39,048 nt of DNA from an uncultured Candidatus Saccharibacteria bacterium (GTDB lineage: Bacteria; Patescibacteriota; Minisyncoccia; UBA6257; GWB1-50-10): the NCBI GenBank assembly GCA_964366055.1, contig CAYISE010000004.1, positions 1 to 39,048 on the forward strand. Reading direction: 5' to 3'. Made by a program: the position numbers and the translations under genes. Shown here piece after piece: positions 10,325 to 29,184 of this stretch. Under the pieces are notes generated by a model. That model saw only the letters and a program-made list of their open reading frames with translations. It ran no database searches and was not told where the DNA came from. Position 1 is the first letter of the stretch. Each line of letters begins with the position of its first letter.

Positions 10325-10502
10325 GCCCCGGAAGCAAAGGTTTCTCGGAACCGGCCTCGATTTTCTCCAGCGGAAAATCGGGCCTGCGCTCTCGGCGAAA
10401 AACTTTTGCTTTGCAAAAGACCAAGCCCCCACGCCTACGCGTAGGTGTGGGGGCAAGCTTTTTCGCCTCCGAGAGCTTCCTTGAAACCCTTGCTTCCGGG
10501 GC
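10325..10502 (-). repeat. Structured repeat family, copy A, carrying a nested 32-bp palindrome insertion
   Basis: Long closing stem; (+) TCCAGCG loop hairpin; CTCTCGG...ACCAAGC...CCTCCGAGAG arm. Confidence 0.85.
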
Positions 10503-13502: not shown

Positions 13503-13643
13503 GCCCTGCCACAACGCTATTCAGGCACCGGCGGTTCGTTTGCTCCAGCGGCAAACGACCGCCTACACTCTCGGTTCAAAAACCCTTCGAGTACCGATCT
13601 TTTGAACCTCCGAGAGTTGCCTGAACAGCGCTACGGCAGGGCA
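13503..13643 (-). repeat. Structured repeat family, copy B
   Basis: 25-bp closing stem whose four + strand mismatches are all A-C (G-U on minus); TCCAGCG loop; CTCTCGG/CCTCCGAGAG arm. Confidence 0.85.
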
Positions 13644-19408: not shown

Positions 19409-20302
19409 ATGCTGGACGTCATTGGCAAAAGAAAATATTTTTTGGGTTTCTCGGGACTAATGGTCCTCGCGAGCTGGATTTTAGCGGTTACGTTGGGTTT
19501 GCGCCCCGGCATTGATTTGAAGGGTGGCACGGAGTGGCAGATTTCATTTTCAAAAAATGACGTTACGGAATCAGCGGTGCGAACGGCGTTAAAAAACGCG
19601 ATGCCGGAGGCGGGTGAAACAAACGTGAAGCGCGCTGGCGACGGAAGTTTTCTGATTCGCCTGCCGGGTCTGGACGAAGAAGTTCACCAAAAATACGCCG
19701 AGGCGCTCAAAAAAGATTTTGGCGATTTGACCGAGAAAAATTATTCCAGCATCGGGCCGGCCATTGGGTCGGAGTTGAAAAACAAAGCCATTTGGGCGGT
19801 GGCGCTGGTTTTGGTCGGCATCTCGCTTTTTATCGCTTGGGCCTTCCGGAAGGTCTCCGAACCGGTAAAATCCTGGAAGTACGGGGTCGTCACTTTGCTC
19901 ACGTTAGTGCACGATGTAAGTATCCCCGCCGGTTTGCTCGCCGTTCTCGGCTATTGGCAGGGGATTGAAATTGATACTAATTTTATCGTGGCGCTTCTGG
20001 TGGTGATGGGTTTTTCGGTTCACGATACCATCGTGGTCTTTGACCGCATTCGGGAAAATCTGACGATTAATCGCGGCAAGAAAATAGAATTGGGAGAAAT
20101 TATAAACTACAGCGTGAAAGAGACCTTCGCCCGTTCGATCAACACCACCTTAACCCTGATTTTGGTTTTGTTAGTGCTTTTAGTATTCGGTCCGCCCTCT
20201 CTTTTTTATTTCATCCTCACGATTCTCACGGGCACGATTTTCGGCACCTATTCTTCCATTTTCGTGGCCAGCCCCCTGCTTTTCTTATGGCAGAAGAGGT
20301 AG
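19409..20302 (+). CDS. secF: Protein translocase subunit SecF
   Basis: GIDLKGG, HDV, GFSVHDTIVVFDRIRE, GTYSSIFVA. Confidence 0.97.
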   Translation: MLDVIGKRKYFLGFSGLMVLASWILAVTLGLRPGIDLKGGTEWQISFSKNDVTESAVRTALKNAMPEAGETNVKRAGDGSFLIRLPGLDEEVHQKYAEALKKDFGDLTEKNYSSIGPAIGSELKNKAIWAVALVLVGISLFIAWAFRKVSEPVKSWKYGVVTLLTLVHDVSIPAGLLAVLGYWQGIEIDTNFIVALLVVMGFSVHDTIVVFDRIRENLTINRGKKIELGEIINYSVKETFARSINTTLTLILVLLVLLVFGPPSLFYFILTILTGTIFGTYSSIFVASPLLFLWQKR

Positions 20303-20355
20303 TACGGCATGTCCCACCTCTCTTTGCAAAAAATGATATATCGGTAACGCCCCGC

Positions 20356-20630
20356 ATTCTCCCGCAGTGTCTTTCGGAACCGCGGTTCGCTTGCTCCTGC
20401 GGCAAGCGCCCGCTGCGCTCTCGGAGCGGCAAATCCTTACGGATTTTTGAATTCCGAAACAGAAGATTTTAACCCCGCTTCGCTCTGCTTCCAGCGGCAG
20501 AGTTCACTGCTGAAAAGGGTTTTTGCCGCAAACCCTTTTCAGAGGTAAAAATCTTCTGTTTTGTAATTCAAAGTACGGATGCCAAGCTTGCCGCTCCTCC
20601 GAGAGCTTCCTCAAAACACCGCGGCAGAAT
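20356..20630 (-). repeat. Structured repeat family, copy C, interrupted by a nested element
   Basis: Closing stem with TC/TC internal loop; TCCTGCG loop hairpin; CTCTCGG...GCCAAGC...CCTCCGAGAG arm. Confidence 0.85.
20445..20573. mobile_element. Nested 129-bp MITE-like element with terminal inverted repeats and 7-bp direct-repeat flanks
   Basis: TACGGAT at 20438-20444 and 20574-20580; ~30-bp imperfect TIRs; internal TCCAGCG loop. Confidence 0.7.
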
Positions 20631-20673
20631 ATTTGGAGAGAGTGTTACTGCATATATTCGTCCAGTACATTTT

Positions 20674-20703
20674 TTGACTTATTCATAGCAATTGTGTTAT
20701 CAT
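20674..20703 (+). promoter_or_regulatory. Sigma70-type promoter
   Basis: TTGACT-N18-TATCAT with an extended -10 TG. Confidence 0.5.
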
Positions 20704-20716
20704 TATAACCGCAAAT

Positions 20717-21736
20717 ATGAAACAAAATCTTGACCAGTTGATTGAGAATCTTCTCATTGAATTTACGCCCAAACAGCGCCGAGTCATCGTCGGCCGTTTT
20801 GGTTTGAAAAGCGGGGAGCGAGTGACATTGCAGTCCATCAGCAATGAACTCAAAGTTACTCGCGAGCGGGTGCGCCAAATTGAGGAACAGACCATTAAAA
20901 AATTGGTAAAGAAGGTGAGAGAAGAAGCGGCCCCAATCATTGAGTACGCCGAGAAACACTTGGCGAGCGTGGGCGGCGTGAAACGCGACGACGCTTTCAT
21001 CGTTGATATGACTCACGGTTTGGCAATTGGTTCCGATGTCAAACACGCCGGCCAGAAACTACGTTTCCTGTTCCTGGTGGCGGGAACGCCGGCGTATTCC
21101 AAGAATGATAATAATATGCATGGCTTCTGGTTCACCGACGAAAGGGCCAAAGAAAAATTTAACGACTTCGTGAAAACCGTCACTAATTTTTTGAAGACCG
21201 GCAAAAAAGAGGAGATTTTAGACAAGAAACTTTATTTGAATCAGTGCAAGGACTTGGTTTCCTGCCATCTTCTTTCCATTCCCAAACATTTCGGGGTGAA
21301 TGTTTTCGGCGATTTCGGCTTGCGGGTCTGGCCGGAGATTGAACCCAAAACAATTCGCGATAAGGTTTATTTGGTTTTGAAGAAACACGACAAGCCGATC
21401 CATTTTGAGGCCATCGCGAAAAATATTAATAAATTCGGTTTGGATAAAAAATCGGCCCACGCCCAGACGGTTCATAACGAACTGATCAAGGATGAGCGCT
21501 TTGTGCTCGTGGGACGGGGGATTTACGCCCTGAAAGAAAAGGGCTATGAACCCGGCACGGTGCGGGAAGTGATCGCGCGGCTCTTGAAAAAGCACGGCCC
21601 CTTGGAATCGACGACGGTGGTCAAGCTCGTTAATGAACAGCGGCTTCTGAAAGAAAATACGATTTTATTGAATCTCCAGAATCGGCGTTTCTTTAAGCGC
21701 CTGGATAACGGGAAATATCAAGTGCGGGAAGCGTAA
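20717..21736 (+). CDS. Sigma70 region-4 HTH protein with C-terminal winged-helix (HARE-HTH/RNAP delta-like) domains
   Basis: RFGL...TLQSI...VTRERVRQIE; TVHNELIKDERFVLVGRGIYAL; no sigma region 2. Confidence 0.8.
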   Translation: MKQNLDQLIENLLIEFTPKQRRVIVGRFGLKSGERVTLQSISNELKVTRERVRQIEEQTIKKLVKKVREEAAPIIEYAEKHLASVGGVKRDDAFIVDMTHGLAIGSDVKHAGQKLRFLFLVAGTPAYSKNDNNMHGFWFTDERAKEKFNDFVKTVTNFLKTGKKEEILDKKLYLNQCKDLVSCHLLSIPKHFGVNVFGDFGLRVWPEIEPKTIRDKVYLVLKKHDKPIHFEAIAKNINKFGLDKKSAHAQTVHNELIKDERFVLVGRGIYALKEKGYEPGTVREVIARLLKKHGPLESTTVVKLVNEQRLLKENTILLNLQNRRFFKRLDNGKYQVREA

Positions 21737-21744
21737 GATTTTTT

Positions 21745-21879
21745 TCCACTCCCATTTCCTAAAGCACCGGATGTCGCGTTGCTCCAGCGGCAACGCGCAT
21801 CGTTACGCTCTCGGCGAAAAAATCCTTCGGATACCAAGCTTTTTCGCCTCCGAGAGTTGCTTTAGGAAACAGGAGCGGA
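21745..21879 (-). repeat. Structured repeat family, copy D (minimal, uninterrupted)
   Basis: 22-bp closing stem with three A-C (minus G-U) pairs; TCCAGCG loop; ATCCTTCGGAT-ACCAAGC inner loop. Confidence 0.85.
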
Positions 21880-21923
21880 TAACTTCAATAGTTGGTTTAG
21901 ATAGAGTAAAATAAAAGGGAGTT

Positions 21924-27912: not shown

Positions 27913-27978
27913 AATGTAACGTTCTCCATTCTATTGAAAATTTACAAATATTTCAAGATAATTGCGGAGATGAGGAAA

Positions 27979-29184
27979 ATGAAGAACAAAGTTTTTGTGG
28001 GTTTGTCCGGTGGGGTGGACTCTTCCGTCGCGGCTTACCTTCTTCAAAAGCAGGGTTATAACGTAACCGGCGTTTTTATCCGTTCTTATAATATTGATGG
28101 ATGCGCCGAGCGGGACGCGGAAGACGCCCGGCGGGTGGCGGCGCATTTGGGCATTCCGTTTTACGTTTTTGATTTTGAAAAAGAATACAAGGAGAAGGTG
28201 GTGGAATATATGGTGGACGGATACCGCGCCGGCCTCACACCCAATCCCGATGTAATGTGCAACAGAGAGATAAAGTTCGGTTTGTTTTTGGAGAAAGCGC
28301 TGGAGATGGGGGCGGATTATATCGCCACTGGTCATTATGTTCGTTTGACAGAGAAAGAAAATGTGTTTTCCTCAACCCGCTTCGCTCGTCCAGCGACTCG
28401 CTCGCTTGTCCTCGCCGAGCAACCGTCGAATCGCGGAACGACGGACCATGCTCGCTCGGCTGCGGGGGTTTCGGAGAAACATATTTTCTCTCTCCTTGAA
28501 GCAAAAGATAAGAATAAAGACCAGTCCTATTTCCTCTGGACGCTCGCGCAGGAACAATTGAGACACTGCCTTTTTCCGATAGGCGATTATGTAAAGCCCG
28601 AGGTGCGGGAGATCGCGAGAAAAGCGGGATTGCCGACGGCGGAGAAAAAGGACTCGCAGGGGATTTGCTTTTTGGGCCGGGTCCCGCTTGGCGATTTTCT
28701 GAAGGAATATATCAAGCCGAAAAACGGTCCGATTGTGACAACGAATGGCGAGAAAGTAGGAGAGCACGAAGGAATCTTTTTTTACACCGTTGGTCAGAGA
28801 CACGGTATTGGCGTGGGTGGCGGCGAGCCGTATTACATAGCCGAAAAAAATCCAAAGACCAATACGCTCGTGGTCGCTCAAGGAAACGATAATCCGGCAT
28901 TGTTCAAAAAAGAGATTGAAATTGCGGATATTCATTTCATCAATTCGGAACATTCCGACATTCCGTGGAATGTCGGAATGTCCGCGATGGCTCGGGTGAG
29001 GTATAGACAGCCGCTTGCCCCCGCAACGCTTTGCCGACTACCAGCCGCCAATTATAAACTCGTCTTCAAAAAGCCAGTAAAATTTATCGCATCCGGCCAA
29101 TCCGCCGTCTTTTACGAAACCGGCTGGCTCGCCGGTCTCCGCGGCCGCGCCTTGCTCGGCGGTGGTATAATAGTGAAGAATTGA
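27979..29184 (+). CDS. mnmA: tRNA-specific 2-thiouridylase MnmA with in-frame repeat insertions
   Basis: SGGVDS, TPNPDVMCN, ATGHY, KDQSYFL, DSQGICF, YTVGQR, RYRQ, GQSAVFY. Confidence 0.96.
   Translation: MKNKVFVGLSGGVDSSVAAYLLQKQGYNVTGVFIRSYNIDGCAERDAEDARRVAAHLGIPFYVFDFEKEYKEKVVEYMVDGYRAGLTPNPDVMCNREIKFGLFLEKALEMGADYIATGHYVRLTEKENVFSSTRFARPATRSLVLAEQPSNRGTTDHARSAAGVSEKHIFSLLEAKDKNKDQSYFLWTLAQEQLRHCLFPIGDYVKPEVREIARKAGLPTAEKKDSQGICFLGRVPLGDFLKEYIKPKNGPIVTTNGEKVGEHEGIFFYTVGQRHGIGVGGGEPYYIAEKNPKTNTLVVAQGNDNPALFKKEIEIADIHFINSEHSDIPWNVGMSAMARVRYRQPLAPATLCRLPAANYKLVFKKPVKFIASGQSAVFYETGWLAGLRGRALLGGGIIVKN
28351..28494. repeat. 144-bp structured element inserted in frame in mnmA
   Basis: ~26-bp closing stem with TC/TC loop; TCCAGCG and ACCATGC motifs; exactly 48 codons. 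Confidence 0.8.
28946..28984. repeat. Palindrome inside the mnmA coding sequence
   Basis: ACATTCCGACATTCC-GT-GGAATGTCGGAATGT, perfect 15-bp arms. Confidence 0.8.

Follow-up and report, generated by a model that had tools for sequence, protein, structure and literature searches.

Several kinds of short, gene-less repeat have been described in bacteria. [quoted passage not shown] The same portions describe Rickettsia palindromic elements of ~100-150 bp, which inhabit a reduced genome, have no enzyme of their own and are tolerated in frame in housekeeping genes. Moreover, a set of insertion sequences (IS1397, ISKpn1, ISPpu9 and ISRm22) target the loops of repetitive extragenic palindromic (REP) sequences, as stated in the accessible portions of PMC1525189 and PMC12288879. 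Here we examine a 129-bp element that lies within a larger palindromic repeat, copy C, in a 39,048-nucleotide stretch of DNA from an uncultured Candidatus Saccharibacteria bacterium (hereafter the window), which corresponds to contig C4 in an assembly of 27 contigs and 572 kb (G000) with a completeness rating of 98.8%. Because nesting of MITEs and REP-targeting insertion sequences are already described in these sources, a nested insertion is in itself a known type of event. Less ordinary are that this invader is related to its target, that the fold and loops of the parent family are conserved across a class, and that two duplication lengths occur in a genome without a match to the six DDE transposase families searched.

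Throughout, G000 denotes the source genome, C-numbers its contigs, other G-numbers related genomes, and L-numbers extracted contigs or loci; we refer to repeats of the host type as the outer family and to repeats of the insert type, with their long inverted ends, as the inner subfamily. In the interpretation that we favor and consider likely, the 129-bp insert represents a MITE-type transposable element without genes, a member of a young subfamily, that transposed into the older copy C and produced a 7-bp duplication (Table 1). The insert has inverted ends and a 7-bp duplication that recurs elsewhere, and we observed dispersed copies, empty orthologous sites and homology between the two families. 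In being small, gene-less and intergenic, with inverted ends, a fixed-length duplication and many copies, it resembles the bacterial MITEs named above. It differs from them in its body, which is a conserved three-way junction with compensatory changes, homologous to a class-wide family, and in that we found no cognate insertion sequence or transposase for it. Correia elements duplicate TA, whereas the duplication here is 7 bp.

A sequence-only reading of the window had proposed that TACGGAT repeats bracket a 129-bp insert at 20438-20580, with its own inverted ends, its own loop, and a motif common to an insert in mnmA. We reproduced both the coordinates and the anatomy: the inverted arms are 29 nt long, the loop is TTCCAGCGG, and AACCCCGCTTCGCTC (20471-20485) has a copy with two mismatches at 28373-28387 within mnmA. 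As a single strand, the element is predicted to fold into a long stem bearing two hairpins (-57.9 kcal/mol; z = -9.5, 200 shuffles), and its coding capacity is nil beyond a 61-aa frame spanning it that came from a crude open reading frame (ORF) caller. Terminal inverted repeats are kept in all eight aligned inner copies, and the window copy is ~26 nt short of the full-length inner copies (152-155 bp), missing the small hairpin and ACCAAGCC.

The host belongs to a family of ~135-nt palindromic repeats with a predicted three-way junction, formed by an outer stem, by hairpin 1, whose loop is CUCCAGCGG, and by hairpin 2, which is framed by CUCUCGG...CCUCCGAGAG and bears a small apical hairpin with ACCAAGC after it. 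A whole-genome nhmmer search gave 29 rows at E <= 1, of which 21 were at E <= 1.2e-8, and the 18 aligned outer copies of G000 showed compensatory double changes at 32 of 38 predicted pairs. Copy C is located downstream of secF, in the spacer between secF and a sigma-like gene. When the element and one TACGGAT are removed, copy C reads ...AAATCC-TTAC-GGATGCCAAGC..., and this rebuilt copy matches the small apical hairpin and the RCCAAGC motif (GCCAAGC here) of the other aligned outer copies. The proposal that the insert splits the small inner hairpin of copy C is thus borne out by the return of a family-typical hairpin. The composite of copy C and insert still folds as a nested structure, in which the insert lengthens the small apical hairpin. 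At this place, 17 of 18 other outer copies in the G000 alignment (the remaining copy, C2_4361, is partial and unaligned there) and 27 of 27 aligned outer copies from other genomes have a small apical hairpin or a short extension of it, and the 129-bp element is in none of them.

We considered that the TACGGAT pair might be coincidental or a slippage product, with the long copy C as the ancestral state. An exact pair of 7-mers is unremarkable alone, because the 321-bp region holds five exact direct-repeat pairs of 7-8 nt, compared to a calculated expectation of ~3 in random sequence. The feature that is not due to chance is the position of the 7-mers relative to the inverted ends, in a register that recurs at other copies. 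Both TACGGAT copies exactly abut the element ends in a single fixed register (chance ~6e-5 per register, by arithmetic). When every register and duplication length was scanned without the discovery copy, high scores all fell on one diagonal, corresponding to a 7-bp duplication with the element extending one base beyond TTTGAATT...AATTCAAA. At the four other full genome copies, decayed 7-bp duplications remain, with 20 of 28 positions matching in this same register (binomial P = 8e-6 at p0 = 0.30), while nine control pairings of left flanks with wrong right flanks scored only 6-13 of 28. With the outer copies that lack the element also standing against it, we regard coincidence or slippage as having next to no chance of being correct.

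The duplicated 7-mers vary among inner copies (TTTCTGA/TTCCTGA, TTAAAAA/TAAAGAA, ATTTTGA/ATATTAA, TGTAGTG/CATAGTA), and therefore TACGGAT is target sequence rather than an element end. Furthermore, the outermost positions of the 7-mers co-vary across sides, with T/T at both ends in C4 and A/A in C7, and this pattern argues against a 5-bp duplication with an end two bases longer. The sequence-only reading had conceded that it would fall if other copies lacked duplications or if TACGGAT proved to be part of the ends; the matches at four other loci answer the first objection and the differences from copy to copy answer the second.

Inner-subfamily copies are dispersed over at least eight contigs of G000, and further copies occur on three metagenome contigs with flanks unlike G000. 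We also found empty sites. Orthologues of the sigma-like gene are 80-83% identical in four same-genus genomes, in which the secF/sigma spacer is 45-140 nt long, compared to 414 nt in G000; these shorter spacers keep a promoter-like TTGAC...TATCATTA and lack outer and inner elements alike. The C21a locus of G003 reads CATTCTA once; that of G000 reads TGTAGTG, the element and CATAGTA, and has ~10 additional bases apart from the element. Congeners are likewise empty at the C6 and C7 loci, in spacers too diverged to fix the duplication. The checks suggested along with the initial proposal, for other copies, empty sites and duplication lengths, gave dispersed copies, empty orthologous sites in same-genus genomes and a 7-bp length that recurs at the full inner copies of G000.

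Outer copies show both shared and unshared positions among related genomes: the copy at C20:8766 is orthologous with one on G002:C1, where the alignment runs across the element, and G002 and G004 carry an outer copy at the C27:519-600 site, where G000 has none. In G004 and G003 (L065/L066), the secF/sigma spacer has a different palindromic element, CAGGTAGTAG...CACTACCTGG, in the place of copy C; it has TTGAC on either side, and the -35-like box thus appears duplicated. We also note that C21 ends in ~100 G-rich nt, which diverge from the metagenome contig L092 and resemble an assembly artefact at a repeat.

To compare the two families, we used a covariance model built from outer copies only (R1) and one built from inner copies (R2). 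R1 matched each of the seven other full inner copies over its whole length and on the same strand (E 5e-13 to 9e-5), in alignments that pair up AACC, CU-CCAGCGG, CUGC and GGAGACCAAGC; the claim that the insert is related to its host repeat therefore stands. R2 scored 136-177 bits only on four full copies, all in G000, and outside G000 gave 11 matches at only 37-59 bits, nine of which were outer copies already found with R1. A blastn search with the inner element in 40 relatives gave no match. The outer family itself was detected by R1 in 26 of 41 genomes of an order-level sample, with 1-9 matches in each of the 25 others compared to 25 in G000, an abundance that indicates a lineage-specific expansion, and, in an even sample of 151 genomes from the class, in 42 (E <= 1e-6). 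Judging from these distributions, the inserted element is a local and probably recent branch of a structured repeat that is itself old and widespread. We conclude that the outer family is a class-wide palindromic three-way-junction repeat of Patescibacteria with the invariant loop motifs CUCCAGCGG and ACCAAGC; in the literature on repeats of Patescibacteria and the Candidate Phyla Radiation (CPR), searched without supplements, we found no description of it.

The conservation of this fold raises the question of whether the family is DNA or RNA. In the 27 outer copies taken from other genomes, standard pairs fill 93.2% of pair cells and both sides have changed in 329 cells, with a covariation score of 0.83 compared to <= 0.17 when partners are slid. 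Such very strong covariation, together with the unpaired motifs conserved across the whole class, would suit a family that serves mainly as functional, structured RNA at the 3' regions of genes (a stabilizer, terminator or processing site), with the insert as an RNA-domain expansion spread by recombination. Also in keeping with that view, 13 of 14 outer copies of G000 with same-strand neighbors are co-oriented with them, often 4-100 nt past the stop codon, and copy D takes the position that in G003 and G004 is occupied by an ordinary terminator-like hairpin and its T-run (window 21737-21923). However, copy D has no T-run after it, and the sense strand shows no excess of wobble pairs: G-U is found in 21 pair cells compared to 32 for A-C/C-A among the 958 scored in other genomes, and in 11 compared to 19 in G000. 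Moreover, outer copies of other genomes are about as often opposite to neighboring genes (nine) as co-oriented (eight), copies occur at non-orthologous places, 109 of 151 sampled class genomes lack the family at E <= 1e-6, and the inner element stands alone at other loci with its own duplications and so is not a domain expansion. We therefore view the RNA explanation as unlikely.

Rfam models likewise matched neither repeat family. Over the whole window, only two tRNAs and a LOOT RNA were above threshold, and within 20300-21900 the best scores (mir-8186, 21.5 bits with a gathering threshold of 80; LOOT, 19.9 bits with a gathering threshold of 46.4) were at chance level. Since there is no G-U excess, orientation is mixed in other genomes, and Rfam gives no match, we read the fold as a property of a DNA element, which would supply hairpins or cruciforms and protein recognition sites. 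At 19.9 bits, copy D was rejected as a candidate LOOT RNA; the true LOOT RNA of the window (Rfam RF03000, 2765-2872, minus strand, 66.2 bits compared to the gathering threshold of 46.4) has another consensus and is unrelated to the repeats.

The sequence-only reading had further suggested that the nested inserts of copies A and C hit the same loop and thus that insertion is targeted by structure. This suggestion was not supported. The copy A insert is a 28-nt member of a third family, CCCCCACACC...GGTGTGGGGG mini-palindromes of 28 to ~95 nt, and is positioned 3' of the small hairpin, within the ACCAAGC motif. All seven copies of this family have perfect 4-bp flanking repeats (CAAG twice, TTTA twice, TATA, CACG and CGAG), and two of the inserts occupy the same CAAG of ACCAAGC in two different outer copies (copy A, and the C6:5434 copy with its insert at C6:5536). 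We also rebuilt and folded five inner-element targets. The copy C target is strongly folded (z = -4.2) and has a GC content of 66%, whereas the other four (z = -1.0 to +0.5, GC 27-37%) are unstructured, AT-rich spacers beside gene ends or starts. Within its GC-rich host repeat, the copy C insertion site is the AT-richest stretch, on the loop side of the small apical hairpin.

An enzyme that reads the hairpin tips of resident repeats, as IS1397 and ISKpn1 or IS110-type elements do on REP, could account for the folded context of copy C and for the unrelated mini-palindromes a few bases off in two outer copies, and has precedent in the REP-targeting insertion sequences of which the accessible part of PMC1525189 speaks. 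We consider this improbable, given that four of five inner-element targets are unstructured and that the nested elements of copies C and A are of different families, duplicate 7 and 4 bp, respectively, and do not share an exact site. As in the REP-targeting insertion sequences, so far as the accessible portions of these sources describe them, a mobile element sits inside a resident palindromic repeat. Those elements are autonomous and truly target-specific, while here a non-autonomous element of 129 bp has entered a repeat to which it is itself related, with only one of five sites in a repeat. That two element types with different duplication lengths both landed near the tip of hairpin 2 fits insertion tolerance at the least constrained tip better than it fits a common targeting mechanism.

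We examined whether the genome encodes a candidate mobilizing enzyme. G000 has a single intact Y1_Tnp gene of IS200/RAYT (REP-associated tyrosine transposase) type, which is AT-rich and encodes 230 aa (C1:37949-38638, minus strand; locus L110/L111; Pfam 29.8 bits, cut-off 23), with HFHLL and YIHLNP in its translation; a 57-residue N-terminal Y1 fragment is also present at C2:20349-20519. The elements might thus move as folded single-stranded DNA by means of this sole HUH Y1 transposase, in the manner of REP/REPIN. The hairpin-rich elements, with pairs that are almost all Watson-Crick, would be suited to such a route, and the outer family is found in 13 of 15 Y1-bearing genomes compared to 13 of 26 without Y1. 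REP/REPIN-RAYT systems too, as the accessible source portions depict them, comprise hairpin repeats that are long-lived within a lineage, where copy numbers are low to moderate and some genomes have one copy of a Y1 gene.

Other evidence speaks against the Y1 route. IS200/IS605 and RAYT enzymes are not known to make a target duplication, whereas the inner subfamily duplicates 7 bp. The Y1 gene is flanked not by the repeat family but by a private hairpin (TTACGAT-TCCCGGC-ATCGTAA), which occurs on both sides of the gene and, as an inverted copy, inside its coding sequence, three occurrences in all and only there. In 12 genomes, none of 12 Y1 loci has an R1 match within ~1.5 kb, such that the cognate repeats expected beside a RAYT gene are missing, and 13 of the 26 family-bearing genomes, with up to nine element copies, have no Y1 gene. 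The protein only weakly matches the NCBIfam REP-associated tyrosine transposase (36.8, far under the cut-off of 80). Palindromes derived from IS200/IS605 are a poor match as well, as the elements here have inverted ends and left flanks that differ at every copy. We judge mobilization by the Y1 protein to be quite improbable.

A number of observations weigh against transposition of a MITE-type element into copy C. Although the insert has five of six MITE features, it lacks the sixth, a known parent element with a transposase. The sequence-only reading had noted that no transposase is present in the window, and the whole of G000 likewise had no matches to the six families searched (rve, DDE_Tnp_1, DDE_Tnp_1_3, Transposase_mut, DDE_Tnp_ISL3 and DDE_Tnp_IS1595), models that found positive controls in 1-9 of 14 reference genomes. 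An autonomous partner with the same ends, which that reading had proposed to look for, did not turn up when 185,579 species genomes were scanned for a degenerate form of the end, which gave nine single chance hits in unrelated organisms and no inverted partner; the pattern used on metagenome contigs contained internal bases and could not reveal a parent element. On three metagenome contigs, inner copies show no duplication in register (L094, 2/7; L098, 1/7; L099, 3/7), and with them included the matches come to 26 of 49 positions (P = 7e-4). L094 connects flanks found on two separate G000 contigs and is therefore rearranged or chimeric, while moving the left end of L098 by one base would yield 7/7 (ATTATAT), which we left uncounted, its flank being a low-complexity AT repeat. 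By eye, outer copies D, B and G001 L139 have no flanking duplication (1/7 each, with poorly defined ends), and because of these three the 7-bp rule is shown for the inner subfamily only. Copy C without its insert was not found over 19900-21100 among contigs of four public runs, in which same-strain contigs stop at repeats; contig joints at 20424-20596 in these runs carry other outer-family copies rather than an insert-free copy C. Compensatory changes at 20 of 57 inner pairs, in ends as well as internal hairpins, exceed what a plain transposase-binding model needs. Finally, reading the fold at the DNA level leaves unexplained the co-orientation of G000 outer copies, a strong bias seen with crude ORF calls, which accompanies the expansion of the family in G000 and is absent from other genomes.

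We also considered a transposon between the two left-end fragments on C10 (2097-5617) and rejected it because these ends are in direct orientation. The genes in and beside this interval encode Pth, a signal peptidase, HisRS, CorA and four proteins without Pfam hits (155, 142, 500 and 325 aa).

For MITE-type transposition into copy C, we propose the following sequence of steps. A transposase supplied in trans, which was not found in the assembly, would bind the ~29-nt ends, as their anatomy suggests, and the inner element would have entered copy C at its AT-richest spot, on the loop side of the small apical hairpin. Target cuts staggered by 7 bp, followed by gap repair, would then create the 7-bp duplication. 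Landing at a hairpin tip would reflect an AT-rich preference combined with tolerance of insertions where the repeat is least constrained, rather than recognition of the fold.

Table 1. Coordinates of the nested element, its host repeat and related repeats (window positions unless a contig is named)
Feature	Position	Strand	Evidence or remark
Left 7-bp target-site duplication, TACGGAT	20438..20444	+	direct-repeat pair D4
Right 7-bp duplication, TACGGAT	20574..20580	+	
129-bp inner element, gene-less, internally deleted inner-subfamily member	20445..20573	+	model R2, 135.8 bits
Left terminal inverted repeat	20446..20474	+	29 nt, 90% complementary to right arm
Right terminal inverted repeat	20544..20572	+	pairs with left arm
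Inner-element hairpin 1, loop TTCCAGCGG	20482..20503	+	corresponds to outer-family loop CTCCAGCGG
Inner-element hairpin 2	20510..20542	+	small apical hairpin and ACCAAGCC motif lost in window copy
Outer-family copy C, 5' part: outer stem, hairpin 1, hairpin-2 5' strand up to small apical hairpin	20358..20437	+	nhmmer 20358-20449; R1 20360-20444, 20382-20608
Outer-family copy C, 3' part: GCCAAGC motif, hairpin-2 3' strand, outer stem	20581..20626	+	nhmmer 20574-20626; R1; composite fold
Outer-family copy A, downstream of UvrD-like helicase gene	10331..10496	+	R1, 114.3 bits
Outer-family copy B	13507..13638	+	R1, 101.2 bits
Outer-family copy D, uninterrupted reference, 11 nt past stop codon of sigma-70-region-4 gene	21747..21877	+	R1, 117.4 bits
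28-nt mini-palindrome CCCCCACGCC...GGTGTGGGGG (third family), nested in copy A	10426..10453	.	CAAG at 10422-10425 and 10454-10457
Third-family copies	10426-10453 (window), C6:5536, C8:19131, C10:2685, C15:13242, C21:5672, C14:11678-11770		
Diverged family member in frame inside mnmA (27934-29184)	28349..28498	+	R2, 26.0 bits, E 1.8e-6; R1, 29.0 bits, E 2.9e-7; Pfam
Full inner copy (C6)	C6:25868-26020		duplication matches 5/7
Full inner copy (C7)	C7:27964-28117		duplication matches 5/7
Full inner copy (C21a)	C21:7747-7900		duplication matches 4/7
Inner copy split over contig ends (C3/C21b)	C3:1-130, C21:8904-9059		bridged by metagenome contig L092; duplication matches 6/7
Inner-element fragments	C10 (two), C14, C9, C2, C6		
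Scaffold-repeat copies	C1:7417-7545, C5:27301-27534, C8:2172-2400, C8:11168-11382, C9:2280, C10:4790-5007, C11:9841-10089, C18:9909-10016		

One diverged member of the family lies in frame within mnmA, and in this respect, compared by properties alone, the repeats resemble the Rickettsia palindromic elements. They differ from these in belonging to another phylum and in the 7-bp duplication, none being described for the Rickettsia elements in the accessible portions of PMC10969869. In four same-genus mnmA genes, the insert is absent or the linker shorter, with matches split at residues ~145-185 and open frames of 389-425 aa; in G013, from another genus, R1 scores 97.8 bits at C3:44212-44344, inside its mnmA (43831-45054). 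The mnmA members indicate that an element either entered one site more than once or was lost repeatedly. We also observed a fourth, larger scaffold repeat, CAAGAAAACCGTCTCGCAGGCCGAG ... GAGCGAGGCCGAGAG ... GATAGCGTGTTTTCGG, with eight copies in G000. Several contain an outer-family element as an inner module, with only a short hairpin there at C1:7521 and C18:9909, a mosaic organization like that of bacterial interspersed mosaic elements (BIMEs).

Ultra-small Patescibacteria genomes are regarded as streamlined and poor in mobile DNA, yet this 572-kb genome has at least four interleaved families of structured repeats. These repeats break assemblies, as contigs C3 and C21 end within one copy, they swell intergenic spacers, as in the secF/sigma spacer, they can sit in frame in housekeeping genes such as mnmA, and they could be mistaken for regulatory RNAs. 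For the family, the nested copy provides an event that can be dated, has a direction and shows a duplication of defined length, and it narrows the search for the enzyme to makers of 7-bp staggered cuts. More tentatively, and with considerable doubt, we suggest that the nested copy may offer the first direct trace of the mechanism by which a class-wide family moves, and that an unrecognized enzyme, perhaps a host protein reading the conserved loops or a transposase from a family not yet known, may maintain these elements over the long term. If so, this would be a partnership like that of REPIN and RAYT with a different chemistry.

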